Source of the DNA: an uncultured Gammaproteobacteria bacterium
GTDB lineage: Bacteria > Patescibacteriota > Patescibacteriia > Patescibacteriales > Patescibacteriaceae
Direction of reading: 5' to 3'
Assembly: GCA_964545125.1 (NCBI GenBank)
Contig: CAZJEP010000005.1
Coordinates: 1,447 to 65,446 of the forward strand
DNA length: 64,000 nt
Part shown: piece after piece, positions 10,749-29,000 of the stretch
Position numbering within the stretch: the stretch's first letter is position 1
How the letters are laid out: each line of letters starts with the position of its first letter
Made by a program: the position numbers and the translations under genes
Notes under the pieces: model-generated
What the model was told of the DNA's origin: nothing
Database searches by the model: none
The model's input: only the letters and a program-made list of their open reading frames with translations

Positions 10749-10752
10749 AAAC

Positions 10753-11148
10753 CTATCTGTTCAAATAAGTAATAGTCAACTGCAAGATAGTTGCAAACAT
10801 TACCCAAAGCAAATACGGAACCTGGATATAAGTAATCCAACGAGCGTGAGGATAAACAGCTACCATAGCCCAGATGAGCGTACCAAGGACAAGTAAAATA
10901 TCTATGGCCGCCAAAAAATTATTTTTAAGTCCGAATTGCAAAGGCGTAAAAGCGAAGTTAAAAATTAAATTTAGAACAAAGGGCAAGGCAACTATTAAGG
11001 CAGCTTCCTTTTTATAAGCCAACCAAAAGACCCGACTAAAGGAAACTGCGATCAAAACATAAAGAAAGCTCCAGACCGGCCCAAAAAGCCAGCTGGGTGG
11101 CGACCACGAAGGTTTGATTAATTGTGAATACCAATTGTAAGCTTGCAT
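10753..11148 (-). CDS. tspO: TspO/MBR tryptophan-rich sensory protein, short form
   Basis: LIKPSWSPPSWLFGPVWSFLYVLIA plus further TM helices. Confidence 0.75.
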   Translation of the reverse strand: MQAYNWYSQLIKPSWSPPSWLFGPVWSFLYVLIAVSFSRVFWLAYKKEAALIVALPFVLNLIFNFAFTPLQFGLKNNFLAAIDILLVLGTLIWAMVAVYPHARWITYIQVPYLLWVMFATILQLTITYLNR

Positions 11149-12061: not shown

Positions 12062-12134
12062 ATTTTCTTAGTTATTTTAATATAAACACATTGTATGGCA
12101 ATTTAAATAAATTGTCAATACATACTTTTTTGTG

Positions 12135-12221
12135 CGGAGAGGGAGGGATTCGAACCCTCGAACAGCTTTCACTGTTAACACCTTAGCAGGGTGCCCCATT
12201 CGACCACTCTGGCACCTCTCC
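12135..12221 (-). tRNA. tRNA-Ser(GCU), long variable arm
   Basis: Hand-folded, 87 nt. Acceptor GGAGAGG/CCTCTCC, anticodon loop CTGCTAA. Confidence 0.9.
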
Positions 12222-12334
12222 TTTTTGTATGGCGGATAATAAAAATCAAAAGGCTTCTTTTAAAAATTAAACCTTTATGATATAATAAAATATATAAGAA
12301 AATAGAACAATTGTCAATCCAATTGTTGCTTTAT

Positions 12335-12853
12335 ATGGCAAAAAGAGAAAGCCAAGAAATTAAATACGACGAAATAATTAGTTGGACCATTCCCGAATAC
12401 GAGAAACATGATCGTAGTTTTCGTTGGTACGTGATAACGGGAATAATTATGGCTATTTTGGCTGGGTTTTCCCTGTTTACTCCAAACTGGCTTTTTGACA
12501 CGCCAAACTATTTATTTTTGATAATCATTCTTTTATCTGGCGTAACCATGATTTTGTTGAACGCCATGGCAGGAAATATTGAATTTGTGATAACAACCGA
12601 AGGTTTTATTATTGGTGATCGTTTTTATGATTTTGACAATTTTAAAAATTTTTGCGTTTTATACAAACCTAGAGAGAATCTAAAAGTTCTGTATTTGGAA
12701 TTTAGGGGTATCTTTAGGCCTCGTTTAACTGTTCCCTTGCAAGACGTCAACCCCCTTGAGGTTCGTGACATTTTGTTGGATTATTTAACGGAAGACCTAG
12801 AGAGAACCGACGAATCCAATATGGATTTTTTGTCTCGCATTTTTAAGATTTAA
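12335..12853 (+). CDS. hypothetical membrane protein
   Basis: ORF with two central TM helices. Start trimmed from a TTG in the track to the ATG at 12335. Confidence 0.5.
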   Translation: MAKRESQEIKYDEIISWTIPEYEKHDRSFRWYVITGIIMAILAGFSLFTPNWLFDTPNYLFLIIILLSGVTMILLNAMAGNIEFVITTEGFIIGDRFYDFDNFKNFCVLYKPRENLKVLYLEFRGIFRPRLTVPLQDVNPLEVRDILLDYLTEDLERTDESNMDFLSRIFKI

Positions 12854-12914
12854 AATTTGGGCTCAGCCATGATTTTTTGCGCCTTGACTTTAATAGAAAA
12901 ATATTTTATAGTAG

Positions 12915-12937
12915 AAAAATCCCGCAAGGGATTTTTT
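12915..12937 (+). terminator. intrinsic terminator
   Basis: aaaaatccc-gcaa-gggattttt plus a T-run. Confidence 0.6.
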
Positions 12938-12941
12938 AAAA

Positions 12942-12993
12942 GCGCTCGTCGTTTCAGCCAAAGGCTGACCAGCCTCTGGCTAGCAACGGATAG
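12942..12993 (+). pseudogene. tRNA-Arg 5' fragment (first 21-22 nt) interrupted in the D-loop by a 30-nt double-hairpin element
   Basis: gcgctcgtcgtt + [30 nt] + caacgga, compared with gcactcgtcgttcaacgga at 13041-13059. No anticodon or T arm follows. Confidence 0.4.
12954..12984. repeat. GC-rich double-hairpin mini-element, copy 1
   Basis: tcagcc-aaa-ggctga then ccagcc-tct-ggctag. It shares 24 of 31 positions with 37206-37236 inside leuS. Confidence 0.7.
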
Positions 12994-13040
12994 TTTGGAA
13001 ATTTATTGGTGATTATTAAATTGATAATTTAAACAAATAC

Positions 13041-13112
13041 GCACTCGTCGTTCAACGGACAGGACATCAGCTTGCGGAGCTGGTAATATAGGTTCGATTC
13101 CTATCGAGTGCA
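13041..13112 (+). tRNA. tRNA-Arg(GCG)
   Basis: Hand-folded, 72 nt. Acceptor GCACTCG/CGAGTGC, D stem GTTC/GGAC, anticodon stem TCAGC/GCTGG, loop TTGCGGA, T arm ATAGG-TTCGATT-CCTAT. Confidence 0.8.
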
Positions 13113-13155
13113 CAAATAAAAAAAACAGCTCAGGCTAATTTTTTAATCGAAAACA

Positions 13156-13242
13156 GGAGAGATGGCAGAGTGGTCTAATGCGACAGTCTTGAAAACTGTT
13201 GTTGGTGAGAGCCAACCCTGGGTTCGAATCCCAGTCTCTCCG
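13156..13242 (+). tRNA. tRNA-Ser(UGA), long variable arm
   Basis: Hand-folded, 87 nt. Acceptor GGAGAGA/TCTCTCC, anticodon loop CTTGAAA. Confidence 0.9.
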
Positions 13243-13255
13243 CATATAAAAATAT

Positions 13256-14655: not shown

Positions 14656-15399
14656 TTATCCATGAGCAATAGTTAGGGCGTAGATTTTACTGGCGCCGGC
14701 CACTTTAAGGGCTCGGGCGCATTCGTTCAAGGTGGCGCCGGTGGTAGCCACATCATCAATTAATAAGACGGCTTGACCTGTTAGACTCTCCCCTTGCCAA
14801 ACAAAAGCTTTGAGTAAATTATAACGTCTGGCTTGAGCCGACAATTCGGCTTGTGGCTTAGTGTGTTTAACCCTAACCAAACTTTTTGGTTCAAAATGCC
14901 AATCGAGCTTATTGGCAATAATTTTAGCCAGCAACTCGGCTTGATTAAAACCGCGCCAACGATAACGACGACGGCTCAAAGGAACAGCTACCACCACTAA
15001 TTTTTTCTGTCTAGCCCAATAATTTAATAATTTTAAAATTCTCTGGTTGTCGGTGGCGCGCAAAAAATCCACTAATAAGCCGGCCAAAATCTCGCCAGCT
15101 TCTCGCGAAAAATTATATTTGCACAATTTAATTAGCTGTTTAATAGCTTCGTCGCGATAACTAAAGGCGGAAAAAAAATTATCAATAAATAAATTATGGC
15201 CAGGACAAACCTGACCATTTTTATCGGCTCCGCAAATCAAACAAGTTTGCGCTGGTAGCCAATTTAAGCGACTTCGACATTTATCACACAACCATCCCCC
15301 CTCTCTCGAGCAAACCACACACTCACGGGGAAAGAGGAAATCAATTAAAAACAAAACAAGCCGATTGGCTTGTTTTAAAATTTTCTTAATAATAACCAT
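14656..15399 (-). CDS. comFC: ComF family protein (ComFC-type phosphoribosyltransferase with an N-terminal Cys zinc finger)
   Basis: CVVC...CDKC and CLIC Cys pairs, plus a C-terminal PRTase motif VLLIDDVATTGATL. The track starts at a TTG at 15444, and I prefer the ATG at 15399. Confidence 0.8.
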   Translation of the reverse strand: MVIIKKILKQANRLVLFLIDFLFPRECVVCSREGGWLCDKCRSRLNWLPAQTCLICGADKNGQVCPGHNLFIDNFFSAFSYRDEAIKQLIKLCKYNFSREAGEILAGLLVDFLRATDNQRILKLLNYWARQKKLVVVAVPLSRRRYRWRGFNQAELLAKIIANKLDWHFEPKSLVRVKHTKPQAELSAQARRYNLLKAFVWQGESLTGQAVLLIDDVATTGATLNECARALKVAGASKIYALTIAHG

Positions 15400-15421
15400 A
15401 ACCAAAAAATAACAGAGGTGC

Positions 15422-16030
15422 CTACTGCCAAACGATACTATCAACTTGCCAACGTTTACCGGCTTTTACCATCTCCACCTTAATTTCCGGATTGCTAATT
15501 TTAGGCGCCGCATCCCCCGTTTGATCAGTGCGTCTAGCGCCAACCATAACTGTAGCCGTGCCGGATGCCTTATCTAAAGATAAAATTTTAACCGAAACTA
15601 CTTGGGTGCGAACACTGTGAGGAATTTTATAATCAGTTTGACTGCCAAGAATCTTGTCAATTTGGTTGTCAACCCAAGTCTGCATTTTGGCGGTAATAAA
15701 TAATTTCAAATCAGAAAATTGCTCCGCGCCTTCCTGGTTGGAATAAGTGCCGAAGCGTTGTACAAAAATTTTAGCCACTTGGCCGGCGTCTTGTTGAACT
15801 ATTTCGTCGGTAGTAGAGGGTTGAATCTGGTTAGGCGTGTTGGTAGAGGTTTCTTTTGTCTGGGGAGTGTTGGTAATTAAGGTCGCTGTCGGAATTTTAA
15901 CCACCGGCTCTACATTTTGGGAATCATTACTTTTATTAAAATTATAAAATATTAAATAATAAACCAATAAACCAACGGCTAAAGCGCAAACAACGATCAA
16001 AGATAATAAGGCTAAGTTTCTTTTATTCAT
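15422..16030 (-). CDS. bitopic membrane protein, possibly a VirB8/PrgL-like T4SS component
   Basis: One N-terminal TM helix, a Thr/Gln-rich linker, then an alpha+beta-looking domain of about 130 aa. It lies immediately downstream of the VirB4 gene. The function is inferred from topology and context only. Confidence 0.35.
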   Translation of the reverse strand: MNKRNLALLSLIVVCALAVGLLVYYLIFYNFNKSNDSQNVEPVVKIPTATLITNTPQTKETSTNTPNQIQPSTTDEIVQQDAGQVAKIFVQRFGTYSNQEGAEQFSDLKLFITAKMQTWVDNQIDKILGSQTDYKIPHSVRTQVVSVKILSLDKASGTATVMVGARRTDQTGDAAPKISNPEIKVEMVKAGKRWQVDSIVWQ

Positions 16031-16229
16031 ATGTTTAATATAAATGCGAATCCACGAATTAAATCGCGAATACCTCGAAATAAATTTACTTTGTTAAACA
16101 TCATTCCCGTCTTTTGATGGAAAATTTAACGTGGTGAATACGCCCCTGACCCATCTCTTGAGGGGAATTTGCATATTCGTAACCTTTTGTAGTATTCGAA
16201 TGCTCTTTCATAGTTTCGGATTAAGGCTA

Positions 16230-18161
16230 TTATGCAAAGTTTAGTTGTTTTTTATCTTGACGTTCATTGATGGTGGCCATTTCGGCGGCAAATTCTTTTT
16301 TGGCTTCTTCAATTTCCAAAAGTTGGCGCGGATCGGAAGTGATTAGTTGGTCTTCGGTATAAGAAGCCACTACTTTAATAGCGGCATGTTTATTGCCGGC
16401 AAAAAAGATACCTTCACCCAAGCCACACTCCAACAATAAATATTTTTCTCCTTCGGTCAGCAAAAAAGTTTTTTCCACCAAATCAATAGCGGCCTTAGAT
16501 TGTTTTAAAAGCATTTGCAAGGCAGAGTTATTAACAATGGCTTGACCATAAGGGGAACGCAAAAAGTCGTTGACGTCTTGAGTAATATTAGTTACCCCCA
16601 AATAATATTTACGGCAACGCTTAACCAAAGCAAAAATAAATTTAGCGCTGTCTTCGTGTTGCATCAACCACCAAGCTTCGTCAATCACCAAAATTCTCTT
16701 TTTAATCTTACTACGAACCACGTTCCAAATATAATTAACTACCATATAGATGGCCATCGGTCGTAACTCGTCCTCTAAATCGCGTACCGAGAAAGCCACT
16801 AACTGATTATCCATCTCTACGTTGGTCGGACTGTTAAACAAACCAGCAAAAGTTCCCTGCGTATATTTTCTTAAACGCATAGACAAACTAGCTCCGCCCT
16901 CCATACCTTCTAAAATTTCTTGCAAATCACTCATAATCGGCGGTTCCACTTTGCTTAAATCGCAGTCCGGTGTAATGTCTTTTTTGGCGTAAGTTTCTAG
17001 TAGCGCCCTGTCCATAACCGAATCTTCGTCATAAGTCATGGCACCAATCATAATTTTAATCAAACCCTTAACTGTAATAACGGCGCTGCGAATAATATCT
17101 TCAGTCTTGGTTTGCTCACCTACGGCCCGCGGTAAATCAAAGGGGTTGATTTTGCTTTTAGAGGCTAAAGAAATGTTGATGTAGGTGCCACCGACCGCTT
17201 CAGATAAATGCTTATATTCGTATTCGGGATCGATAATAATTACCTCACAACCAATCATCAAACTACGCAACACTTCTAATTTGACGGCATAACTTTTGCC
17301 GGCGCCGGAGGTGGCAAAAACCACCGAATTAGCATTTTGCAAACTAAACCGATCAAACAAAATCAAACTGTTGTTGTGACGATTAATACCATACAAGATG
17401 CCCTCATCAGAAGTCAGCTCACTAGACACAAAAGGGAAAGACGAAGCTATCGGTGAAGAATTCATATTAAAGGCTACAACCAATTCATCGCGATTTAAGG
17501 GTAAGGTAGAATTAAAACCTTGTTCGGCCTGATAATAAACCCGCTTGGAATAAATCAAACGAGAACCAAAAATATCTTCTACGGTATCAGTTAATTTATC
17601 TAACTCCTCCAAGGCGTCGGCATACAAAGTAACATACAAACAAAATTGAAAAAACTTTTCCGTGCCCTGAGTCAAAGCATCGCGCAAATATTCAATGTCG
17701 CGCAGGGCAGTTTCTCTGATGGGGTCGCGCGCCGCTCCTTTTTCGGCGTCCGAGGCGATTTGCGCCTCAAGATTTCCTGCTTTATTTTTCAATTGCTTTA
17801 AGACTAAAGAAGTTTTAACCGGATAAAAATACATGGCAATATCAAAAGTGGAGTTAAGGTTGATAATCGGAGAAAACCACCCTACGCTGATATAACGAGG
17901 ATAAGTTATAACAAAAACTGTGCGCAAAAACTTTGGCCCAAGTTTAATATGATTAGGAGTAACTTCAAAACTGCTAGGCGCAATTAAATCTTTAATAGAA
18001 ATAATGCCCCGTCGATAAGTCTTTTCTTCCAAAACCAATCGTTCGGTGAGCTGCGCCTCTTTTTCCAATTTTTCCAGGTCGGGTTTTTCTAAAACAAAAC
18101 TCGGCCGTTTAACTTCCGGCTGGTCGGATAATTTTTGATTTTCTTTGTTCAAATCAACCAT
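16230..18161 (-). CDS. virB4: VirB4/TrbE-family type IV secretion ATPase
   Basis: Walker A FATSGAGKSY, Walker B RILVIDEAWWLM, and an N-terminal domain with the ..YPRYISVGWF.. pattern typical of VirB4/TraE proteins. Confidence 0.85.
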   Translation of the reverse strand: MVDLNKENQKLSDQPEVKRPSFVLEKPDLEKLEKEAQLTERLVLEEKTYRRGIISIKDLIAPSSFEVTPNHIKLGPKFLRTVFVITYPRYISVGWFSPIINLNSTFDIAMYFYPVKTSLVLKQLKNKAGNLEAQIASDAEKGAARDPIRETALRDIEYLRDALTQGTEKFFQFCLYVTLYADALEELDKLTDTVEDIFGSRLIYSKRVYYQAEQGFNSTLPLNRDELVVAFNMNSSPIASSFPFVSSELTSDEGILYGINRHNNSLILFDRFSLQNANSVVFATSGAGKSYAVKLEVLRSLMIGCEVIIIDPEYEYKHLSEAVGGTYINISLASKSKINPFDLPRAVGEQTKTEDIIRSAVITVKGLIKIMIGAMTYDEDSVMDRALLETYAKKDITPDCDLSKVEPPIMSDLQEILEGMEGGASLSMRLRKYTQGTFAGLFNSPTNVEMDNQLVAFSVRDLEDELRPMAIYMVVNYIWNVVRSKIKKRILVIDEAWWLMQHEDSAKFIFALVKRCRKYYLGVTNITQDVNDFLRSPYGQAIVNNSALQMLLKQSKAAIDLVEKTFLLTEGEKYLLLECGLGEGIFFAGNKHAAIKVVASYTEDQLITSDPRQLLEIEEAKKEFAAEMATINERQDKKQLNFA

Positions 18162-18200
18162 AATAAAATTAATAATGTAATAACGAAAATTAGCTTTTAC

Positions 18201-18872
18201 TTATTGAGAAACCCGCATGGTATTAACATCTTTTAGGGGTTGGTTGGGAGAAGCTTCAGGGTTATAGATGTTATATAACATTTCTATCAAGGCCTGGGTG
18301 TCCAGCTCCACGACATTTAAACCAATAGAAGCTAAACCGCCCACCACGCTATCTACCCGACGATCCAATTCTTTTTTTAAACGATCAAATTTATCTTGTT
18401 TCATTTTAAGAATTGAAGAGGGACTAAAAATCTCCCCCACCCTAGCTATGAAACTTTTTTTGTCATCAGACATCGGGTTATAAGAAATGATTACATAAAA
18501 CCTTTTATTCATAATCTTGCCCAAGGACACCAATTCGGCCACATAGTCGATATATTCGGCGGTTTGCGCTTTGAGTAATTCGTTAGTCTGAGCTTTCTCT
18601 TTGTCTCGCAGATCATTAAGATAATTTTCAATATTTAATTCTCGAGAATGAATGACCAATTGTAAAGGAAAGCTCAAATTATTCAAAAAACTAACATAAG
18701 CAGCAATAATAGCGTTTTGTTCGTCTTCGTTTTTTAGGGCAAAGTTAATACTAGAAACCATCACAATGGAACGCAAAGTTCCATCATCCATAATAATAGT
18801 ATTATCTCTGATCTCGCTTAAGTTGAGATATTTTTGCGTAGAAGGGATAGAGCTTCTTTTTGAAGGGATCAT
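18201..18872 (-). CDS. T4SS-associated orphan protein without ATPase motifs
   Basis: 223 aa, upstream of virB4. The segment LNLSEIRDNTIIMDDGTLRSIVMVSSINFALKNEDEQNAIIAAYVSFLNNLSFPLQLVI resembles, from memory, the extreme N-terminus of Gram-positive VirB4-like proteins. Confidence 0.35.
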   Translation of the reverse strand: MIPSKRSSIPSTQKYLNLSEIRDNTIIMDDGTLRSIVMVSSINFALKNEDEQNAIIAAYVSFLNNLSFPLQLVIHSRELNIENYLNDLRDKEKAQTNELLKAQTAEYIDYVAELVSLGKIMNKRFYVIISYNPMSDDKKSFIARVGEIFSPSSILKMKQDKFDRLKKELDRRVDSVVGGLASIGLNVVELDTQALIEMLYNIYNPEASPNQPLKDVNTMRVSQ

Positions 18873-18935
18873 AAATAATAAAATAAAATCAAAAGTTAAA
18901 AGTCAAACGGCAAAATTTCAAGTTAAAAATAAAAA

Positions 18936-19326
18936 TTATTTCAATTTATTTTTGAGTTTTATAACTCCAGCTCCTATCATTTTTGCTAATTCTTCCGCTT
19001 CTGTTAATAACTCATTTGTTTTGCGCTCATTCGTTAGCTTAGCATCTCTCAACAAACCCAACCAGTATTTTGTTTCGTTAGCGCTTTTTAATGATATTTC
19101 AAAAAATTTTTTATACTCCAAGCGACTACTGGAAGCTCTTGCTTCAACTATATTAGCGCCAATAGAAGTCGCTGATCTTATTAGAAATCGCTGATCTTAT
19201 TAATTGATCAGAAATAACTTTGGCGCTATTTTTCTTTGGCAAATCATCGAGCAAAGAAATAATTTTTAAACTAAAATAATAGCACCTATACTTAAGTTCA
19301 TTTTTGTCTCTTTTCTCTTCTGGCAC
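18936..19326 (-). pseudogene. four-helix-bundle protein (23S rRNA intervening-sequence protein family) disrupted by a frameshift
   Basis: The downstream part (track ORF 18936-19121) reads EYKKFFEISLKSANETKYWLGLLRD. Removing one 19-bp repeat unit restores ...ISDQLIRSATSIGANIVEARASSSRLEYKKFF..., an ORF of about 111 aa from the GTG at 19326. Confidence 0.75.
19163..19200. repeat. 19-bp tandem duplication (2 units, 1 mismatch) causing the frameshift
   Basis: tagaagtcgctgatcttat (19163-19181) and tagaaatcgctgatcttat (19182-19200). Confidence 0.9.
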
Positions 19327-19383
19327 ACTTTTAATCTTTTATTTTAATTTTTGCCCCTTGAACTTTGAATTTTGATTTAATTG

Positions 19384-19854
19384 TTAGCCCAGCAAATCAT
19401 TAATATTTTTTTCTCGGGTAATACTAATATTGGCGTTTGAATCATCTTCTCCAGAATAATAACCCTTGGTGTCGGCCACTAAGGCTAAGCGGCTTAAGCG
19501 CGAAGAAGAAACTTCTGGTCGAACTAATTCATCCTCCTTGTAGACCGGAACCAAATCCGTAATTTCCGCATCATCAAGCTTGTTCCAAACCCGTAAATTT
19601 TTTCGTTTGAAAGTCTGCAATAGGTTTAATAAAAAATAATGAAAAGGTGCGCCGTTAATTTTAATAAAAGCAAAAGTAAAACCAACCATTACGATAATTA
19701 TAGAAGAAAATAGAAACAAAGAAAAGTCAAAAATTCTATAAGCCAAGAAAACCAAACCAAAATCAACCAGCATGATAATAAATTGGCGCACCGACAAGGG
19801 GCCAATTATTTTGTCTTCCACATCAATAAATTGCGGGACGGTGAATTGCTGCAC
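19384..19854 (-). CDS. PrgI/VirB3-like small two-TM T4SS protein
   Basis: The N-terminus VPQFIDVEDKIIGPLSVRQFIIMLV followed by two TM helices is the PrgI-family pattern. GTG start. Confidence 0.55.
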   Translation of the reverse strand: MQQFTVPQFIDVEDKIIGPLSVRQFIIMLVDFGLVFLAYRIFDFSLFLFSSIIIVMVGFTFAFIKINGAPFHYFLLNLLQTFKRKNLRVWNKLDDAEITDLVPVYKEDELVRPEVSSSRLSRLALVADTKGYYSGEDDSNANISITREKNINDLLG

Positions 19855-19860
19855 AAAATT

Positions 19861-19895
19861 AGGTCTTAGGTCTTAGGTATTAGGTATTAGGGTTT
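19861..19895. repeat. 7-bp tandem repeat (AGGTCTT x2, AGGTATT x2, AGGGTTT)
   Basis: aggtcttaggtcttaggtattaggtattagggttt begins 7 nt upstream of the PrgI-like start codon. Confidence 0.85.
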
Positions 19896-19934
19896 AAAAT
19901 TATTATCTATTCCCCACAACCTTTAACCGACAAC

Positions 19935-21227
19935 CTAATGTATTAATTTATTTATCTCCCGATTAAAGCCCAAAATAGCTTCAAATTCTTCTTTAGTTAA
20001 ATAATCCGGGTTGTCTTTTAGTTTTTTGGCCAAAATATTATCCACACTCTTGCCGGCGTTAATCGCCTCTTGGTAAGCTTCAATATACATACGATTAGTC
20101 GGACTAGCTTTCCAACCTTGGACACCGGCAAATTTTTTGCCATAGTCTTCCTGACCCAGAACTTCTATCTTTTTTTTGATAACTTCCGTGGCTCTGACCG
20201 GATCACTGCTTAAATTACGAAAATTCCTAATGGTCATATACTTTAACTCGTCTACCGGAGTGTAAATCTTGGGATTGGTTTTTATGTCCTCCATTTTTAT
20301 TTTACCGTTTTCGGTGCGCGGTCGATTATCTTTAATAATTTCTCCCTCGACTACGCTCGGGACAGGGCCCTCGATAACTGCTGGTTCAGACTCTTTTTTT
20401 AAATATTCCTCTGTCTCGTTTTTCTGGTTTCCCTTGCCCTGAGCCTGCCGAACGGGTTCGACTGCGTTTCCCTCGACTTCGCTCTGGACAGGCAGGGTAA
20501 GCGGGACAGGCCCCTCGACTACGCTCGGGACAGGCGGTTCTAGGGAGACTGGCGCTGGTTTTTCTTGGTTCTGCCTGGCTTTAATGGCGGCGACCAAATC
20601 ATATTCTACATCGCGAGCAATAGGTGTTTTAACAGCTTCGCCAGACATCCAAGAATTGGGTTGTTTGACGGGCGAAACAATAGGTTCATCTTTGGCTAAA
20701 TTTAAAATGCTTTGCGCCGAATTGATATCAAAACCCAGTCCGCCTAACCCCACTTCTTTTATTAACGATTCTTTGGTGTTGATTTTGTCCCTAATACCCC
20801 GCAAATAGGTGTTCAAAATTTTTCTAAACCTTTCTTCCAGTTCTCGCGAGGCAAAATTAATATTGGCTTTAGCAATAACTTCGGAAATTTTTTTGTCTAG
20901 ATCGGTTAAATGTTTGGCTGACTCATCCAAAACGGTTTGCGACAAATAATCGGTGACAATTTCATTAGCTTGGATGGAAAAAACGCGAAAATTGAGCTCA
21001 TTAGCCAAACTTTGAGCCTGATTAATCGACAAAGAAAATTCTTGACTAATCGTAGTCGCCAAATTATGGCTGGAAATTTCCCCCACCAAAACCCTAATAA
21101 CCAAAGCGCCCAAAACAACCTGATATTTTTTTTCCAACTCCTTAATAGACGCTAACAGTAACGGAGAAGAAAATCTCTGCTTGGTGGCTAGTGGTAATTG
21201 ATTGTATTTTTCTAAATAGCTAAGCAT
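19935..21227 (-). CDS. hypothetical protein with an internal PVPSVVEG repeat region
   Basis: 430-aa ORF. No family recognised. Confidence 0.55.
   Translation of the reverse strand: MLSYLEKYNQLPLATKQRFSSPLLLASIKELEKKYQVVLGALVIRVLVGEISSHNLATTISQEFSLSINQAQSLANELNFRVFSIQANEIVTDYLSQTVLDESAKHLTDLDKKISEVIAKANINFASRELEERFRKILNTYLRGIRDKINTKESLIKEVGLGGLGFDINSAQSILNLAKDEPIVSPVKQPNSWMSGEAVKTPIARDVEYDLVAAIKARQNQEKPAPVSLEPPVPSVVEGPVPLTLPVQSEVEGNAVEPVRQAQGKGNQKNETEEYLKKESEPAVIEGPVPSVVEGEIIKDNRPRTENGKIKMEDIKTNPKIYTPVDELKYMTIRNFRNLSSDPVRATEVIKKKIEVLGQEDYGKKFAGVQGWKASPTNRMYIEAYQEAINAGKSVDNILAKKLKDNPDYLTKEEFEAILGFNREINKLIH
20344..20534. repeat. three copies of a GC-rich 23-mer inside the CDS
   Basis: ccctcgactacgctcgggacagg at 20344-20366 and 20512-20534, and the variant ccctcgacttcgctctggacagg at 20470-20492. 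Confidence 0.85.
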
Positions 21228-21263
21228 AAATTTAAATTACCATTGTGCTTTGGGTCTTATAAT

Positions 21264-22424
21264 TTATCTTTTCAGTTTATCCAGCTCTTCCTCTAGCGCC
21301 AATCTTTCCAAACTGCCCTCGGGATAGCGAGCCAACAGAGTCTGGGTTTCGGTAATCTGTTGCGCTTTCAGCTTGGCTTGCGCTTCTTCCTGATGATTAA
21401 CAGCGGTCGTTTTGGGAAAAATCTTCGGCTTAGTGACTGGAATAACCGGAGCGAATCTGGTTGAATTAGTTTCCTGAGCGCCAACATTTCGACCAAGCGG
21501 TTCTTCAGGAATAGCCACCGGAAAAATCATCCAATGCCTGGGATCGGAACTGGGCAAATTTTCCGGAAAAAATTTCAAGTTGCAATAAACCTGCAAAAGA
21601 TTGCTGAGCAGTTTCTTCTCGTCAAAATCCAAAAATTTGGCGTTGGGAGAATTGGTAACAAAATCAGACAAAGCCACCGCGTCAAACATACCACTACCCT
21701 TTTGCGTTATAAAATAAGACAACCAATTAGCCACCGTGGGGTCGACTTGTCGGCCATCCAAAACCAGGCGCTGACTGGTCAAAGTTTCCTGATTGTTAAG
21801 CAACAAATTAGCTAACTCACCCTGAATCTCCTCGCGAACGTTAAAAATTAAATGAAAAATAAAATCATTGATTTCCGACAAAACTTCGTTATCATTTGAG
21901 CTCAACATTTCCACCAAATTGTTAGCAAAAAATTCTTTAATTTTTTTCTCTCGCTCTTCCCAGTCAACATCTTCATCGTCTTCCGGTTCATCGACAAACT
22001 CCGGCGGTTCAGCCAACTGCTGGGCTACCCATTCGGCTTCCAGAGGAATGGCTCGCTGTTGGATTTCAGCATAACTTTGATATTTAGCCGAATCCCCTCC
22101 CCAAGAACTGATCAGACCGGAAATATCAACGCCCAACCAATCCGCCACCACCAACAAACGGGTGCCGGCAATATCGCAAGCCAGTTGGCGGGCCACCAAA
22201 TCGCTAAAACCAAAAAAGTTTTTGATGGTTTCCACCAAATTAGTCGCCGGAATTTCCTTTAAAAACAGCTGGGCGATTAAATCATAATAAATTCGCAACT
22301 GAGGCAGATTAAACTTATATTTATTGGCAATCAAAACATTGAGCTCGTCAGCTTTAAAAGAATCCAAATAGGCGTAAACTTCCGGGGGCAAATTTTTAGC
22401 CTTGGCTTTAAGGTTATCGTTCAT
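21264..22424 (-). CDS. hypothetical acidic protein
   Basis: 386-aa ORF whose start lies 3 nt from the stop of the upstream gene. Confidence 0.55.
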   Translation of the reverse strand: MNDNLKAKAKNLPPEVYAYLDSFKADELNVLIANKYKFNLPQLRIYYDLIAQLFLKEIPATNLVETIKNFFGFSDLVARQLACDIAGTRLLVVADWLGVDISGLISSWGGDSAKYQSYAEIQQRAIPLEAEWVAQQLAEPPEFVDEPEDDEDVDWEEREKKIKEFFANNLVEMLSSNDNEVLSEINDFIFHLIFNVREEIQGELANLLLNNQETLTSQRLVLDGRQVDPTVANWLSYFITQKGSGMFDAVALSDFVTNSPNAKFLDFDEKKLLSNLLQVYCNLKFFPENLPSSDPRHWMIFPVAIPEEPLGRNVGAQETNSTRFAPVIPVTKPKIFPKTTAVNHQEEAQAKLKAQQITETQTLLARYPEGSLERLALEEELDKLKR

Positions 22425-22427
22425 ATT

Positions 22428-25226
22428 TTAAATTATCTTTTCCAATTTAAGATAGGTTTCTATGGCGTCTTTATTAAGCGGTCCGGCGCCCTGCTCTTTT
22501 TGCGCCAAATTTCTCAAACCATTTAAAGTTTCTTTGCTTAAATCATTGGCTTGACCAAGTTTGCCAGAACCGGAAACTCCGGCCTCCCTCAAAACGTTTT
22601 TGATCATTTCGTTGTCTCTAGCTTTTGACAAATCGGCATCAAGGTCATTGTAAATATTTATTATTTTGGGTGATTCCGGATCAAAATTTTTGGTCTTTTC
22701 TACGGCAATCATTCTGGCTAAGTCAGGATTATTGCCACTTCTTTCCAGAGTTTTCAACCGGTCGGCGCTGGTGCTCTCAGCGATAACTTTAAGAGCTTCC
22801 GGACTAAGCTTATCGGAATTGATATTTCCTAGTTGCTTGGCCGAGGCCTTGGTGGCGTATTTCTCCAGATCGGCCACGTCAAGTTTTCCGTCAAGACCAG
22901 TAAAAGCTTTGGTGGCATCACCATTTAAATCCAAATTCAGACTGTCGGCCCGCAAATAAGTTAAATTTCCTTGGGCCTTCTTAATTTCGTCGGTATAATG
23001 ATCAATAACCTGCTGATTAGCCTCATCAGGATGATCTTGTTGAGCAACTTTAGCCAAATCAAGCTGATTTTTGGCATTAAGTAATTTTTCTTCTTCTCGA
23101 TGTGCCAACTCTCCCAAAGCCTCTGATAACTGTCCAGCTTGTTTAGGGTCACCATCTTTGTCTTTTTTGCTAAGAGCACTACTCCAACGTTCTTTTTTCA
23201 AAGCCTCTCTAAAGGCTTCGGTAAAATTAGCCAAATTCCTTCTATCCGCCTCAACCCCGACCTGCCCTCGAAGATTAGTTTGGGAATTAAGGTCAAAAGT
23301 GGAAAGATTTTGCTTGTCAAAATCTATCTTGTTTTTTTCAATCAGCTTCTTGAGGGCGGCTTTTTGATCAGCATTGGTCAAGTCAAACAGCAGTTCGGCT
23401 TGTTTTTCTTGGGTGGCACTTCGTAAGGCTTTGAGTTGGGCAGGGTTATTGGCAAAAAGTTCTTGCGCCTTATTAAAGGATTCTTTAGCGGTGGTTGACT
23501 CTAAATTTTTAAATTCACCTTTAGCGGCCAAAGCGGCATAGATACCTTTTAATTTACTTTTATCAGTGGTGCCACCAAGCAAGGAATGAAGCTCTTCGCT
23601 GCTCATATTCTTGTAAGGCGACATTAATTCTTCATATTCCTTGTTGGCCCGTTCTGTTTGAGCCACATCCTTGGCTGTGCCGAATTTACTGGCGTGCATA
23701 GCTTGGGCAAATTTATAACCAAAGCTACCAGGTACATAAGCTTTCAATTTAGACACAGCGCCAGTGTCACTAACCATGGTTCCGTCGTTCCTATTTTTAT
23801 CATATTTATACATAACATCGCCTTCTTTGTGGGCTCCGGTAACGGTCGCGGCCAAGCGTTGTTGAGTGACTGCTCGATTAAATTTGTTTTTGGTTAGTTT
23901 ATTAAAATTATCTTTCAAACCCTGTTTGGTCATTAAATTATTATACACAGCGCCGGCGCCCCTAGTGACAAACCCGGGTCTATCTCCGTATTCTCTGCCA
24001 AAAGCTTTAACTAAATTTCGCGAAGCTCTGTAGTCAACGGCCTTAGCCAAACCCAAACCGCCTCGTCCAACAGCTTTGGTGCCTTTCCAAGCGGCTCGAC
24101 CCGTGGCTTTGGTGGCTCCGACGGCCCCCCGCTTGGCTAAACCAAGACTCTTTCTCTTGGCCCAACCTGCTCCGCTTTGTAAGCGAGCCATGGCCGTGCC
24201 AGCCGTAGCGCCAGCCACCCCGCCAAAAGACTTGGCCACTATCAAACCGCCAAGCAACAAACCAATAGAAACAGCGAAACGCATTAAATGTTCGGTGGTG
24301 CCGACATCAGTGAGACCGACACGTGGACCGCCACTGGGAGTATTAAAACCGACGCCGTTAAGCAAACTGGAAGCGCTATTAAATTGACCCAAAGTAGCCA
24401 AAGACAACCAGATAAAAAAAGCTAAAATCGGACCGACAATTAAATTATTGGAAAACTGTTTCCACCAATTAGTGGTAACACCTCTAGTTAGGGGCGCCAC
24501 CGACCCCAAATAAGACAAGGGCGAAAGAATGATAAGAATCCACAGCATAACAACCCGATAAACCAAGGTTATCAACAAGGCAAACATCACCACCAGCATC
24601 ACAATAACATAAAGAAGGGCCACAATATAAGAAGCTACAACCCCCCAAAAATCATAACTACCCTGTTGCTGTCGGAGATTTTCCCAATCGGTGGCACTCA
24701 TAGAAAACAATTTATCCATACCCAGCAAAAAAACGAAATTATTGCCACCAACACCCTTAAAACCATTAACAAAAGTCAACATAATCACCTGAACAAAATC
24801 AATCAACACCCCGCAAATCATTTTGGAAAAATTAATAAGAATAGCAAAAATAATCACCCGCTTCAAAAGCTGTTTAATGCTATAATCTCGAATATGAAGA
24901 ATGGTGGCAAAAGCGATAATCAGCAAAATCAAAATAAAAAACATGTTGGACAAATCTCTGACAATTCCCCAACCCAAGACCACCGCCGGCATAGTAATAA
25001 AGCCGTTGTATTGAGCTACTTCGACCAAAACATTGATAACAATCAAAATTAATTGCCCAAGAGCCAAAATCAAAGCTACAATAATACTACCGATAACACT
25101 CAAAACGGCGTCAGTTATGTCGGAGGCTAGCGCAAAATGAGCCGGCACAACAAAAATTACCAACAGCATCAAAGCTAGGGCCAGGAATTTTTTGGGTTTA
25201 AAAAATTTAGCTACGCGTCTTAACAT
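22428..25226 (-). CDS. polytopic VirB6/TrbL-like membrane protein with a long Gly/Ala/Lys-rich and helical C-terminal extension
   Basis: At least 8 hydrophobic helices in the first 380 aa or so. These are followed by GGVAGATAGTAMARLQSGAGWAKRKSLGLAKRGAVGATKATGRAAWKGTKAVGRGG and then about 520 aa of K/E/A/L-rich sequence. Start trimmed to the ATG at 25226 (MLRRVAKFF). Confidence 0.5.
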   Translation of the reverse strand: MLRRVAKFFKPKKFLALALMLLVIFVVPAHFALASDITDAVLSVIGSIIVALILALGQLILIVINVLVEVAQYNGFITMPAVVLGWGIVRDLSNMFFILILLIIAFATILHIRDYSIKQLLKRVIIFAILINFSKMICGVLIDFVQVIMLTFVNGFKGVGGNNFVFLLGMDKLFSMSATDWENLRQQQGSYDFWGVVASYIVALLYVIVMLVVMFALLITLVYRVVMLWILIILSPLSYLGSVAPLTRGVTTNWWKQFSNNLIVGPILAFFIWLSLATLGQFNSASSLLNGVGFNTPSGGPRVGLTDVGTTEHLMRFAVSIGLLLGGLIVAKSFGGVAGATAGTAMARLQSGAGWAKRKSLGLAKRGAVGATKATGRAAWKGTKAVGRGGLGLAKAVDYRASRNLVKAFGREYGDRPGFVTRGAGAVYNNLMTKQGLKDNFNKLTKNKFNRAVTQQRLAATVTGAHKEGDVMYKYDKNRNDGTMVSDTGAVSKLKAYVPGSFGYKFAQAMHASKFGTAKDVAQTERANKEYEELMSPYKNMSSEELHSLLGGTTDKSKLKGIYAALAAKGEFKNLESTTAKESFNKAQELFANNPAQLKALRSATQEKQAELLFDLTNADQKAALKKLIEKNKIDFDKQNLSTFDLNSQTNLRGQVGVEADRRNLANFTEAFREALKKERWSSALSKKDKDGDPKQAGQLSEALGELAHREEEKLLNAKNQLDLAKVAQQDHPDEANQQVIDHYTDEIKKAQGNLTYLRADSLNLDLNGDATKAFTGLDGKLDVADLEKYATKASAKQLGNINSDKLSPEALKVIAESTSADRLKTLERSGNNPDLARMIAVEKTKNFDPESPKIINIYNDLDADLSKARDNEMIKNVLREAGVSGSGKLGQANDLSKETLNGLRNLAQKEQGAGPLNKDAIETYLKLEKII

Positions 25227-25228
25227 AT

Positions 25229-25876
25229 TTAAGGAAACAAAAGGGCCAAGATGTAACCAAGAAAACTTAGGGGGTCGACAATGGCCCAAACCAGCAAAAC
25301 AACCAAAACAGCAACCGCCAAGATAATAAACAGGGCCAGCAAATCCAATAAAATTAGTAACATAGCCTCAAAAATACCAATATTATCACCAAAAGTTTTT
25401 AGAGTTTTCTTGGCTTCTTTGTTGCCGGAAATAGCCACATTCAAACCGGGAAGATTTCTGGACCACTCATGACCCAACTTAGAAAAAAATTCACTGCCAG
25501 CCACCAAACGCATAAAAACATGAAGGTTGATATAAAGCAAAGTTAAACCCCAACTAGGAATTAAGTTCAACCAAGACTGTGCTAACAAACGGTCGGTGCC
25601 AAACCTAACAGGGGTTCCCAGAGCATTAACAGCGACCATCTCAGTTGTAGCCAGACTAACAGACATATTTTGTCGGGCCTGATGTCTAAGCGAACCCATG
25701 GCAGACTGTTTATCGTTACCTCGGTCTTTGGTAATGATTTTGTTTGTTTGTGCAGGCCTCTTGTTGCCAACAATCTTAATATTATTTTCAGATACATTTA
25801 AACTACGGCTAGCTCGCGCTTCCTGTCGTTGTCTCCTTAAATCATTGGCCAATTCCTGATCTGAATTTCCGACCAT
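25229..25876 (-). CDS. hypothetical membrane protein, first gene after the terminator
   Basis: Basic N-terminus and C-terminal TM helices. The track's start at 25978 lies inside the terminator hairpin, so I trimmed it to the ATG at 25876. Confidence 0.5.
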   Translation of the reverse strand: MVGNSDQELANDLRRQRQEARASRSLNVSENNIKIVGNKRPAQTNKIITKDRGNDKQSAMGSLRHQARQNMSVSLATTEMVAVNALGTPVRFGTDRLLAQSWLNLIPSWGLTLLYINLHVFMRLVAGSEFFSKLGHEWSRNLPGLNVAISGNKEAKKTLKTFGDNIGIFEAMLLILLDLLALFIILAVAVLVVLLVWAIVDPLSFLGYILALLFP

Positions 25877-25964
25877 AAAAAACTCTTTCTTTAATTTAAT
25901 TATATCACTATTTACCGGACCAAGCAAAGAGGAGAAAACGCGCAACGGCCAATATATAACCCGC

Positions 25965-26007
25965 AATAAAAAGGTCAAGCCCCGGCAATTAAGCTTGCCG
26001 GGGCTTG
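25965..26007 (-). terminator. strong intrinsic terminator downstream of the giant gene
   Basis: 13-bp stem caagccccggcaa / ttgccggggcttg with a 6-nt loop, followed on the minus strand by TTTTTATT. Confidence 0.75.
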
Positions 26008-26035: not shown

Positions 26036-29000
26036 TTATTGAAGATTTTTCCAGACAACCAAGGGATGATCCAAGAAGGGGTGGTTTTCTGGGCCAGCGT
26101 TAGGATTGCTATTTGGAGTAAAGGTGTTGGTGGCTCCCCAATTATCGGTCAAAATAATCTTGGGAATAATTTCACAACAATCAATGGCGGGGTTGTTGGC
26201 AATCTCTGATGGCAAACCCTGACAATTATTATGACTGCAATTACCACCGCCGTTTTTTATTTCGTCATAGCTCAAGAAATAATAAACCTGATGGCTATTG
26301 GTAATATCCGGACGCTCAAACATATTAACATTTCTGACCAAGGTAACATCATGATTGTTTTTCTGGTAACCCCAATTAATAACATATTTTTTCAAGGGCA
26401 ACTGATCCTTGTCTATCTTGCTGGCAAAATTGATAACCACCCAACCGGAATCGTTAAGGACATATTTGTCTCCTGACAGCAAGCTGTCGTTAAGTTTAAC
26501 CCGAGGCACAGTCGGACTGACCAAACAATAGTCATTATTGGAGCCATTATATTCCGGTCTGGTGTTATTGTCGCAATTTTTCAAAGCAAAATCAACTTGA
26601 CCGTTACCAATACCACAGCCACTGGCAGAATTTCGGTCATAAGACTGACCATTCCACTTATAGCAAGGGCTTTCATTGTCAACTTTAGTGAACAAACGCT
26701 TAACCGCCTCCACGGCTCGTTTTTTACTCGCCGTCTTATCTGAACTGGTATCTCTAATATCAGAGGCTAGGCGATAAAAATTGGTGTGGTTGAAACATTC
26801 AAACAAACAACCAACTGAAGCACTATCTCCGCAAACACGAGCATCAAGACAATAATCGGTGGCCCAACCAGTAAATTTACTGGTGGCATTATCTTTTGAT
26901 AGTTCACATTTCGTTTGATTATGACGATTACCCCTAGGATAAGATGGGTCATAGCAAACATAAGCATTAAGTGGTGGCATCAAATCATTGGTGGCCCAAA
27001 CTCTATAACCATTCTGATTGGTGGTTGTAATATATTCATATTTGTTGTTTCCCTGAAAGTCACGCCCACCAGGACCACGAGGAGTGCTACATTTTCGATC
27101 TTTGGCTGACCAGGTGCCACATTTATTATTCTCACAAGTAGCGCCATCTTCCCAAATCACAGCCAACCCCACAAAACAATCATCATAAACGCCCAAGTCT
27201 CTGGAGACATCTCGGTCTGTTTTACTGCAATCATTACAGTCGCTAACTTCTATCGGCAGTGGCTCCTGCTTTTGGCTATCCAAATTACCCGGACAATAAG
27301 CTCGACGCTCGCTACCTGTAACATTTTTATCTAGACCGGCTTGGCTAATGCCATAATAAGGTACAAAAGGCATTATTTTGCCTCTAATATTGCCAGCGCT
27401 CAATCTGTCGAACAAGGGCGGTTTAAGCGAAGAATAGGCGCCATAATAGCCACTGCCAGCCTGTTGGTTCAAAACAAGATCCGTGGCCTTGCCTCCGGCA
27501 TTAACCCCAAAATCAGCGTAAAAATAGGAAGAGGTTGGCGTTAGGTTATTGCTATCTTTGAAATTAGTTAATAAATTCGCCGGGATGCTGTAAACACTAT
27601 CCTGGGCAATACGGGAATACCAATAACTTTCTTTGTCCACTTTAATAAAAGTCTGACACTGAAATTCTGGCTGAGTCTTATTGGAACTGTTACAACCATC
27701 ATAAGCGTCCACACAATAATACAAGTCTTTGGGAATATTCAAAGCCACGCCCTCTTCGTATTCTTCGCTTTCCACTTTGTCAATCGGATACCACAAGAGA
27801 CAAGTACCCGAATTTTTCGGATCATATTCCAAACAATAGCCGGTCCAACCTTTCTTGCGCAAACCGCTGTCATCAAAATAATCGCAGGACATAGCATTGC
27901 CCTCTGGGTATAAACGACAGTCGCTATGCAAATATTGTTTGATTTTGTTAGCACTACCGTCATCTTTGATATTGAGACCGGGTTCCAATCTGACATCGTC
28001 AAAATAAACCAAGCCAGCGGTAGGCTTAATCCCAATGGTAATTCTGGTGTCGCGCTCCAGACCCGAAGGCAAGTTTCTTTGATAAGCGTTAGAAATGGAG
28101 AATTTTCCGGTTAAACGAACCCAACGACCAGCCACACTAGTGGAAGCCAGAACGGCCGCCGGGATAGAGGCGCCATCGGCATCGGTGGCATTGCACAAAT
28201 TAGCAGTAGTATCGTTAATGGATTCAAAAGGACACTCGTAATCAGGATCATAACCTCTTTGCCTTAAATTTCTACCCACGGTCAGCTCCACCTTGGCGCC
28301 ATAACGCAAGAAAACATAAGCGGAGACAATATATTGGCGATTGCCCGCATTGGTAACTTCTTTGACCACAAACTCGTTGGTTTTGCCCACAGCCCGACCA
28401 TCAGGAATAATCTTATAACTGCCAAAACCTAGTTCTTTTTCTATAACCTTGGCATCGCTGACGATAGGGGCCCTGGTAGTAGCGGTGCGGAAATCCACAA
28501 AATCGGTTTGCCAAGCATTTTCAAAACTGCCATCAAATTTAACTTTAGCATCACCTTCTTGTTTCATGGTAGCCAAATTATACAAATCGGCATTCCAATA
28601 ATTACCCTCGTAACCAACCTTGGAGTAACCGGTCAAGTTGGAAATATCCAGGGCGGCTGAGCCGGAAATATAAGTTTGGTTGGTGGCCGGATCCTTGGAA
28701 ACAAAATGAATACATTCTCCGGATTCGTTCATTTGGTCGCACAAACCGCGTTCGTAGCAAATCTTGTCCCCGGCTTTGGCCGGATTTTCCGTGTAGCTCT
28801 TACAACCCAGCCAAGCGGAACATTGTCGATCAGGATCAACCTTCAACAAAGCGTTGGCATTATTTTCATTGTCATTGCTGGCGTTTTGCGGGGCCTGTTC
28901 CGAACCGTCGCGGTTTACTCCGCTGGCATTAACATCCCAAACTAAAGGACTGTATTTACCGCCGTTAAAGGCGCGTTCATTAAACAACACCTGACCCTTA

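Follow-up and report, generated by a model that had tools for sequence, protein, structure and literature searches.

What is a type IV secretion system (T4SS) doing on a bacterial chromosome when no relaxase and no coupling protein are seen beside it? This question is raised by a locus on contig CAZJEP010000005.1 (assembly GCA_964545125.1), deposited for an uncultured Gammaproteobacteria bacterium and placed by its GTDB lineage in Patescibacteriota. We analysed 64,000 nucleotides of this contig (positions 1,447 to 65,446 of the forward strand; hereafter the window, in which all coordinates are counted from the first letter). A run of nine co-directional minus-strand genes, free of any interruption, occupies positions 14656-25978 and constitutes the T4SS cluster, with comFC as its last gene. 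A preliminary description of this DNA had listed eight open reading frames (ORFs) followed by comFC, and all of them are present (Table 1). It had further read the set as a domesticated chromosomal T4SS of an organism resembling the Candidate Phyla Radiation, and not as a conjugative element; the identity of VirB4, the synteny and the absences within the window all support this view. We regard it as very nearly certain that the locus is a chromosomal Patescibacteria T4SS in the arrangement typical of the class ABY1 and of Ca. Falkowbacteria. The system appears to derive from the monoderm conjugation machinery of the MPF_FATA type. Its inner-membrane translocon consists of PrgI/VirB3, a TrsD-like protein together with a 643-aa VirB4, an extended VirB6-like protein and a bitopic VirB8-like protein, and its lineage-specific companions are two paralogous soluble helical proteins and one protein with two transmembrane (TM) segments. 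It needs to be stressed that a domesticated T4SS of this kind, including the comF, recG and radA genes of ABY1, is already published (PMC12102498; PMC10633639; review PMC12857230).

The ATPase is a VirB4 whose N-terminal segment is encoded separately

The 643-aa protein matched NCBIfam model NF045971 (VirB4-like conjugal transfer ATPase, CD1110 family) with 351.8 bits against a cutoff of 325, as well as Pfam P-loop_TraG (3.9e-27), AAA_10 and, weakly, CagE_TrbE_VirB. Its closest match in the PDB was 4AG5, the C-terminal domain of Thermoanaerobacter VirB4 (1.7e-46), with TrwK of R388 coming next. The Walker A motif reads ATSGAGKS, and the Walker B motif, ILVIDE, is found at residue 490. The earlier call of a VirB4 ATPase with Walker A and B motifs is thereby upheld, and the protein is a true VirB4, the best curated model for it being one of an MPF_FATA family. 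Identity with HerA/FtsK ATPases was considered as well and rejected: no HerA/FtsK chain was found at E<=0.01 in the PDB search, the match to Pfam DUF87 (4.4e-8) was far weaker than those to the VirB4 and TraG models, and the NCBIfam matches were to T4SS ATPases only. The NCBIfam model of the archaeal protein CedB was matched weakly by the ATPase core (1.3e-12 over about 70 residues, 47 bits against a cutoff of 700).

The gene directly preceding virB4 encodes a 223-aa protein which matched Pfam TraC_F_IV (5.6e-5) and NCBIfam TrsD/TraD (NF041427, 1e-7); a PDB sequence search with it returned nothing useful. The CD1110 VirB4 model is tiled by the two proteins, its positions 2-121 being covered by the 223-aa protein and positions 175-730 by the 643-aa protein. 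The 223-aa protein is thus TrsD-like and represents the detached N-terminal segment of VirB4. We found the two as separate ORFs, usually 0-30 nt apart, in 80/80 related loci (the best 80 of 562 VirB4 relatives in a collection of species-representative genomes), and since no locus departs from this, the split is ancient and fixed.

Membrane components resemble PrgI, VirB6 and VirB8 to different degrees

The 156-aa protein matched Pfam PrgI (4.8e-9, 37.1 bits against a cutoff of 27), and a hydropathy scan, which was also used for the VirB6-like, VirB8-like and 386-aa proteins, predicted two TM helices in it, in agreement with its earlier description as a PrgI/VirB3-like protein with two TM segments. 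Its median identity is 50% in 73 loci, and a PDB sequence search with this protein gave nothing useful.

The VirB6/TrbL-like assignment proved less straightforward. The protein is indeed polytopic, with some 7-8 TM helices that all fall within residues ~29-360 (counted from TTG 25289), and matches of the expected kind were found, but all of them fall below cutoffs. These are the NCBIfam models of Mycoplasma TM proteins encoded by an integrative and conjugative element (ICE), namely NF045889 (5.6e-10, 39 bits against a cutoff of 70) and NF045848 (9.8e-7), and Pfam TrbL/VirB6, which was matched by 3/24 family members with a best value of 6.2e-4. Sequence conservation is confined to the N-terminal 360 aa, the C-terminal ~590 aa forming a charged and poorly conserved tail, and a PDB sequence search with the family returned coiled-coil noise only. 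There is thus moderate support for this product being an extended VirB6-like protein.

For the protein encoded after virB4, which had been put forward as a candidate VirB8-like protein, the evidence came from structure prediction. It has a single N-terminal TM helix. As a single sequence it found 9 close matches, and an alignment query was needed to recover more. An AlphaFold2 model built on a 98-sequence alignment has a mean predicted local distance difference test (pLDDT) score of 80.8, exceeding 90 across the folded domain. In this model the TM helix is connected by a disordered linker to an NTF2-like domain, in which three helices are combined with a curved antiparallel sheet. When this model was compared with the PDB by Foldseek, the top matches were TraE of pKM101 (3.5e-5), CagV and PrgL of pCF10 (1.1e-4), further ones being a Rickettsia VirB8-like protein, TrwG, TraH of pIP501 and Brucella VirB8. 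The likeness is one of fold, as the PDB search gave no match at the sequence level, while Pfam NTF2_YvbJ was touched by 6/67 homologues. Because NTF2-like folds are common, the assignment rests on the fold ranking taken together with the bitopic topology and the position after virB4; with these combined, the product is predicted to be a bitopic VirB8-like protein with a confidently modelled fold.

Three proteins remain without a known family, and two of them are paralogues

Five of the eight genes had been regarded as orphans. Two of these, the TrsD-like protein and the protein with the VirB8 fold, no longer belong to this group, and the genuine orphans number three, namely the 215-aa, 386-aa and 430-aa proteins.

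The 430-aa protein is soluble, and its AlphaFold2 model (pLDDT 78.3) contains three confidently predicted all-helical domains (residues 1-90, 102-180 and 320-430) with disordered Pro-rich linkers between them. No Pfam, NCBIfam or PDB sequence match was found, and a fold search of the whole model against the PDB gave no match with E<2 (the best being 2.3). The family is nevertheless large, comprising 2,881 cluster representatives at E<=1e-3 and still 1,695 under the stricter limit of E<=1e-30, and every member with a source name is annotated just as "hypothetical protein". The gene is the first of a five-gene core and lies directly upstream of the PrgI gene in 69/80 loci. A 23-nt sequence is repeated three times within it (20344-20534), encoding the linker motif GPVPSVVEG, and linker length is highly variable among homologues.

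The 386-aa protein is likewise soluble, with no TM segment, is present in 33 related loci and had no match in Pfam and NCBIfam family searches. While a pairwise BLASTP comparison of the 430-aa and 386-aa proteins was insignificant, hhalign of the two family alignments gave a probability of 98.6% and an E value of 8.5e-16 over the N-terminal ~200 columns. It was only this profile-profile comparison that revealed the relationship, by which the two proteins are paralogues. No nuclease, HUH or Rep-like motif or fold was recognised in either of them (the fold search having been made with the 430-aa model).

The 215-aa protein combines a disordered basic N-terminus with a conserved two-TM module bearing the motif GLTL.Y.N.HVF...F.KLG.EW in a 16-sequence alignment. 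It belongs to no Pfam or NCBIfam family, and in 21 related loci its gene precedes the VirB6-like one.

Gene order is conserved among Falkowbacteria and ends at a ComFC/RadA junction

The best 80 VirB4 relatives are 74-91% identical to the protein studied here, and all come from Ca. Falkowbacteria or other Patescibacteria metagenome-assembled genomes, one closed 977-kb chromosome among them. When synteny was compared across these Patescibacteria, the core order of 430-aa gene, PrgI, TrsD-like, VirB4 and VirB8-like proved to be kept in essentially all of the ~80 Falkowbacteria/ABY1 genomes. As the same gene order recurs in ~80 species-level genomes, the gene set is not a product of chance. A second module, composed of the 215-aa gene, the VirB6-like gene and the 386-aa gene, is contiguous with the core in ~30 loci. 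In the other loci it must be located elsewhere, because the upstream DNA there codes for unrelated soluble proteins. Across the same 37 genomes, median identity is 77% for VirB4 versus 52% for RecG, which would fit strong purifying selection on a vertically inherited core gene and not on a gene of a mobile element.

The array ends at comFC, as described before: the product has Pribosyltran and DZR_2 (double zinc ribbon) domains, matches TIGR00201 at 1e-29 and belongs to the ComF family. Among the 69 loci that reach far enough, the first co-directional gene after the VirB8-like gene encodes RadA in 32 and ComFC in 30 (62/69 together), with spacers that are mostly shorter than 50 nt. RecG is encoded within six genes downstream of the core in 35 related loci.

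Three further observations were made in the related loci (labelled L below). Many of the closest genomes (L004, L008-L013 and others) were deposited as 'uncultured Gammaproteobacteria bacterium' despite having VirB4 loci typical of Patescibacteria, and these labels are probably wrong. A large serine recombinase with Resolvase, Recombinase and Zn-ribbon domains is encoded 5-6 genes downstream of the core in 5/76 loci (e.g. L055:12057-13568); none of that kind is found in the window. In 42 loci (e.g. L017:14083-14613), a gene 3-6 positions downstream of the core codes for a conserved ~176-aa membrane protein that Pfam does not match.

No relaxase, coupling protein or integrase was found in the window

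A Pfam scan covered every ORF of at least 100 aa in the 64-kb window and found no family of relaxases, VirD4/TcpA coupling proteins, VirB11, integrases or tyrosine or serine recombinases, or transposases, in line with what had been noted before about relaxase, type IV coupling protein (T4CP), VirB11 and integrase. VirB4 was the sole P-loop_TraG/AAA_10 match. Direct repeats that would bracket the cluster were looked for between 11 and 41 kb and not found, and the direct-repeat scan of this region gave no oriT-like repeat, although no search aimed at oriT was made. Three tRNA genes are located at 12134-13243, starting some 1.4 kb past comFC, but repeated fragments of them were not found. The window contains no compositional island either. 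The possibility of an ICE was thus rejected within the window, where relaxase, T4CP, integrase, flanking repeats and compositional island are all missing.

The locus is an ordinary member of the published Patescibacteria T4SS

In the survey of Quinonero-Coronel et al. (2025), VirB4 was found in 2,417/3,035 Patescibacteria genomes, and nearly all of these proteins form one clade nested in MPF_FATA (PMC12102498). According to the same survey, the accompanying parts are an adjacent TrsD homologue, PrgI/VirB3, VirB6 and arrays of PF18895 pilins, with KsgA nearby; a relaxase is found near only 15 of 2,474 virB4 genes, even if its authors do not exclude very different relaxases; the class ABY1 has comF, recG and radA in the locus and is where the few detectable VirB8 homologues occur; and inheritance is strictly vertical, with rare transfer between classes (PMC12102498). 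Its authors also put forward the import hypothesis (PMC12102498). Wang et al. (2023) found by transposon sequencing that the homologous saccharibacterial cluster of Southlakia epibionticum (SEML1_0006-0019) is essential for epibiotic growth, and remarked on the missing coupling protein and relaxase (PMC10633639). The Patescibacteria T4SS is the first one shown to be essential to its own carrier. A 2025 review lists the Patescibacteria systems as a new T4SS type (PMC12857230).

The locus described here shares with this clade its chromosomal location, the absence of a relaxase near virB4, the adjacent TrsD, PrgI/VirB3 and PF18895 pilins, KsgA/RsmA nearby, comF and recG as in ABY1, a VirB8-like protein and, with the moderate support given above, a VirB6-like protein. 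In Southlakia the pilin array and hydrolases lie inside the cluster, whereas at the present locus distances of 9 kb and 17 kb separate them from it. Nothing essential separates the locus from the published systems, and it is an ordinary member of that group.

With MPF_FATA plasmids and ICEs of Gram-positive bacteria, the locus has in common a VirB4 that passes the cutoff of the CD1110 family (of the C. difficile CTn) and a lack of outer-membrane parts. The gene order VirB3, TrsD, VirB4 is that of pGO1 (TrsC-TrsD-TrsE; TrsD subclass), and the VirB8-like fold matches PrgL of pCF10 (PrgH-PrgI-PrgJ-PrgL) and TraH of pIP501. It differs from these conjugative systems in having no relaxase or T4CP in the window, in being chromosomal and vertically inherited, and in having VirB2-like pilins and extra lineage-specific proteins. 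A resemblance to Mycoplasma ICEs was also found. The pilins matched the NCBIfam model of Mbov_0395 (1e-7), the VirB6-like protein that of Mbov_0396 (5.6e-10), and VirB4 (1.3e-82) as well as the TrsD-like protein (6.9e-11) that of Mbov_0397, all of these matches being below the equivalog cutoffs. The three Mycoplasma genes are adjacent (they have consecutive locus tags), while their counterparts here are not. Mycoplasma ICEs are mobile, with a DDE transposase and a TraG-type T4CP. Because pilins, VirB6-like protein and VirB4 plus TrsD all match these three models, the comparison hints at a pilin-like component within MPF_FATA lineages, in which case the Patescibacteria pilin need not come from diderm systems.

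Two systems that import DNA are relevant for comparison. ComB of H. pylori is a diderm system with VirB7, VirB9 and VirB10 homologues, and it is not known to have a relaxase or a VirD4-type coupling protein. It is a T4SS that imports DNA in natural transformation (PMC13395361) and acts upstream of ComFC (PMC9005727). We found no close sequence relationship between ComB and the locus, and for the Patescibacteria system import is no more than a hypothesis. The archaeal Ced system (CedA/CedB) performs pilus-dependent DNA import with a VirB4-like ATPase (PMC12102498); its membrane partners differ from those encoded here, and the CedB match reported above is short and weak.

Pilins and wall-active proteins are encoded elsewhere in the window

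Pilin paralogues had been noted at two other loci of the window, and matches to Pfam T4SS_pilin (PF18895) confirm this. The two pilin genes at 5269-6613 gave values of 2e-11 and 1.4e-11, above the cutoff, and matched the NCBIfam Mbov_0395 pilin-like model at 4.2e-7 and 1e-7, below the cutoff. Counted from the ORF list, they lie ~13 coding sequences downstream of virB4, i.e. within ~20. The second group is located between porA and porB. Its products are a pilin-like protein of 277 aa, a VirB1-like lytic transglycosylase of the SLT type (43285-44028), a protein with a 3D domain and one of 551 aa that contains an internal hairpin of the pilin-like kind. The scores are 2.7e-21 for SLT, supported by NCBIfam lytic transglycosylase matches, 1.1e-4 for 3D and a weak 6.3e-4 for T4SS_pilin; the pilin-like hairpins of this block were read directly from the sequence. 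SLT lytic transglycosylase is the usual VirB1 activity. That the pilins and the porA/porB block belong to the T4SS is suggested by family and proximity only.

Pilin-like two-helix hairpins occur in unusual contexts here, fused to Cys-rich extracellular domains or within proteins of 277-551 aa (5269-6225, 42429-43262 and 44759-46414), and the Pfam pilin cutoff is reached only by the 131-aa pilin and the 318-aa fusion. The genes porA (41113-42300) and porB (46269-47294) are split by the 4-kb block as if an envelope cassette had been inserted in the por operon.

Two candidate adhesins are encoded upstream of the cluster, namely a giant protein that would be either secreted or anchored and a membrane protein with TSP3 repeats. 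In ~15 loci, weak tblastn matches to the giant protein were found on this same side of the cluster.

Import of host nucleic acid is favoured, tentatively, among the possible roles

The likeliest role of the system would be a contact-dependent transfer of macromolecules. Within this general role we favour import of host nucleic acid, although we would give it somewhat less than an even chance of being right, as it is drawn from genomic association with ComFC, RadA and RecG. It is favoured because ComFC or RadA comes directly after the operon, RecG is close and the parts that process DNA in conjugation are missing locally, and also because precedents for import-type T4SSs exist in ComB and Ced. 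TrsD and VirB4 would dock on PrgI/VirB3, which would anchor the VirB4 hexamer, and the two would provide the energy for building a VirB6/VirB8 channel across the single membrane and the wall, the latter being opened by the SLT enzyme. A VirB2-like pilus would then be extruded and would contact the host bacterium; a filament made of VirB2-like pilin is unusual for a monoderm. The channel would carry macromolecules between host and epibiont, and imported host nucleic acid might be passed on the cytoplasmic side to proteins handling single-stranded DNA (ssDNA), as in ComB or Ced. In natural transformation ComFC, RadA and RecG all act on incoming ssDNA (PMC9005727, PMC5512693, PMC6755099). A bolder version of import, in which the 430-aa and 386-aa paralogues would be new cytoplasmic T4SS components that replace the coupling protein or relaxosome and link VirB4/TrsD to ComFC/RadA, the outcome being ComEC-independent import of host DNA or RNA into a monoderm, seems improbable to us.

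Several points weigh against import. For this locus and for ABY1 organisms, import is a prediction from genomic association. Deletion of comEC in Southlakia abolishes transformation and not growth, while the T4SS is essential (PMC12857230), and since the comEC mutant still grows, the essential role of the T4SS there is not ComEC-dependent DNA uptake. In Firmicutes ComFC partners ComEC and ComFA (PMC12663950), and its adjacency here may have nothing to do with the T4SS. ComFC, RadA and RecG also have general duties in repair or housekeeping, so that their adjacency could reflect nothing but inherited gene order. The VirB6-like and Mycoplasma-ICE matches are below curated cutoffs, and as T4CP homologues are found elsewhere in most Patescibacteria genomes (PMC12102498), one may be present in this genome outside the window.

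The main rival explanation takes the same T4SS to act outward, either with a VirB2-like pilus serving host attachment or through export of effectors, ComFC, RadA and RecG being unrelated neighbours. T4SSs are ancestrally exporters and VirB4 drives pilus biogenesis (PMC12857230); Wang et al., because relaxase and T4CP are absent, proposed protein export or an alternative role (PMC10633639); the essential role in Southlakia is ComEC-independent (PMC12857230); and tubular structures at the parasite-host interface may be T4SS pili (bioRxiv 10.64898/2026.06.21.733656). Several divergent pilin-like genes in the window point in the same direction. However, no coupling protein or recognisable effector is encoded in the window, the known exporters that do without a T4CP (Ptl, Brucella VirB) are diderm systems (PMC12102498), and the presence of ComFC or RadA after the operon in 62/69 loci is left unexplained. 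On balance we think outward action unlikely, yet serious enough to be kept next to import. Descent from conjugation machinery also brings to mind DNA export or donation without a canonical relaxase, or two-way exchange between epibiont cells, which would depend on unrecognised DNA-processing proteins, for example the 386-aa and 430-aa ones. No role has been assigned to the conserved soluble orphans encoded just before PrgI, and room for very different relaxases was left by the survey authors (PMC12102498). On the other hand, neither a motif nor a fold of the nuclease, HUH or Rep-like kind was recognised in these orphans, the direct-repeat scan (which was not a search aimed at oriT) gave no oriT-like repeat, and strict vertical inheritance with rare interclass transfer speaks against an active transfer element (PMC12102498), all of which makes such donation quite improbable.

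Finally, the cluster might be a part or a decaying remnant of an ICE whose relaxase, T4CP and integrase lie beyond the 64-kb window. tRNA genes, three of which are found close to comFC, are typical integration targets, and a serine recombinase does occur downstream in the five loci mentioned above. Yet ~80 species keep the gene order, housekeeping genes flank it at either end, VirB4 shows higher conservation than RecG, flanking direct repeats and a compositional island were not found, and relaxases are hardly ever encoded near the surveyed virB4 genes (PMC12102498). We therefore consider an ICE extremely improbable, and import of host nucleic acid is retained as the preferred, tentative proposal.

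A firm clue to the cargo of this T4SS would bear on how a large share of bacterial diversity feeds on hosts. The window does not open that question, because both the system and the import hypothesis are already published. What the locus does is sharpen the parts list of ABY1/Falkowbacteria, and several points, each of modest weight, are new: the fission of TrsD and VirB4 as read from the tiling of a single model, the predicted VirB8 assignment at the level of fold, the 430-aa/386-aa paralogues, which accompany the core as conserved genes lacking annotation, the alternation of RadA and ComFC at the operon end as a near-invariant junction, and the apparent three-way resemblance to Mycoplasma ICE pilin-like, TM and VirB4 genes. 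The 430-aa family, the TrsD/VirB4 split, the VirB8-like protein and the ComFC/RadA junction are concrete targets for later work.

Layout of the operon and its surroundings

Genes of the cluster are mostly tightly spaced. The 215-aa and VirB6-like genes overlap by 4 nt (with ATG 25226 as the start of the latter), and the following spacers are 3 nt (VirB6-like to 386-aa gene), 36 nt (386-aa to 430-aa gene), 80 nt (430-aa gene to PrgI), 511 nt (PrgI to TrsD-like), 39 nt (TrsD-like to VirB4) and 199 nt (VirB4 to VirB8-like), after which the VirB8-like gene and comFC overlap by 23 nt. For both the 215-aa and the VirB6-like genes, the ATG starts given in Table 1 are better choices than the upstream TTGs because homologues start at equivalent positions and, in the case of 25876, because the DNA 5' of it contains a terminator-like hairpin and a promoter-like site. 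The hairpin separates the giant gene from the T4SS genes, and the T4SS operon probably starts at the promoter-like site. Both elements were found by consensus scan alone, which is no proof of function.

Table 1. Features of the T4SS locus and of related regions in the window
Feature	Coordinates	Strand	Remarks
215-aa gene	25229-25876	-	from ATG 25876; 249 aa if upstream TTG at 25978 is used
VirB6-like gene	22428-25226	-	932 aa from ATG 25226; 953 aa from TTG 25289
386-aa gene	21264-22424	-	
430-aa gene	19935-21227	-	
PrgI/VirB3-like gene	19384-19854	-	156 aa
TrsD-like gene	18201-18872	-	223 aa
VirB4 gene	16230-18161	-	643 aa
VirB8-like gene	15422-16030	-	202 aa
comFC	14656-15444	-	262 aa
Promoter-like site	25978-25951	-	TTGACC-16-TATATT; overlaps terminator-like hairpin
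Terminator-like hairpin	26007-25976	-	13-bp stem, 9 G-C pairs, T tail; directly 3' of giant gene
23S rRNA intervening-sequence-type four-helix-bundle pseudogene	18939-19314	-	frameshifted; in PrgI-TrsD spacer; no T4SS part
VirB2-like pilin, classical	6218-6613	-	131 aa; Pfam T4SS_pilin PF18895
VirB2-like pilin	5269-6225	-	318 aa; Cys-rich domain, then C-terminal pilin hairpin; PF18895
Cell-wall/pilin block between porA and porB	42429-46414	+	four proteins
Giant secreted/anchored protein and TSP3-repeat membrane protein	26036-35312	-	giant protein 2845 aa, CBM_4_9; upstream of cluster
RecG helicase	7622-9778	-	neighbour, no T4SS part

The pseudogene in the PrgI-TrsD spacer matches Pfam 23S_rRNA_IVP at 1.4e-24 once both frames are joined, and the gene is inactivated by a 19-nt tandem duplication at 19163-19200. 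Copies of this type, just 35-37% identical, are found in T4SS-operon spacers of two other genomes, in one between PrgI and TrsD (L024:3135-3431) and in the other between the 430-aa gene and PrgI (L046:7531-7809). Since such divergent copies occupy spacers in different genomes, repeated independent insertion of small 23S_rRNA_IVP genes into T4SS operons is suggested. A 36-codon ORF (16101-16211, minus strand; MKEHSNTTKGYEY...) lies in the unusually long spacer that leads from virB4 to the VirB8-like gene, and the corresponding spacers are far shorter in related loci.

The flanks consist of core genes, as had been described, with rsmA, leuS and xth upstream of the cluster. Other genes of the window are of the housekeeping kind and encode CorA, Dus, CysRS, RecG, TspO, pyruvate:ferredoxin oxidoreductase subunits, Fpg, an ABC transporter, HtrA, a DEAD-box helicase and glycosyltransferases. 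Around the cluster (7622-11148, 38941-39747 and 48930-49799), genes for DNA repair are packed more densely than is usual in a reduced genome, the genes concerned being those of RecG, Xth, Fpg and a pyrimidine-dimer glycosylase (10404-10748); in 11 related loci, HhH-GPD glycosylases are encoded.

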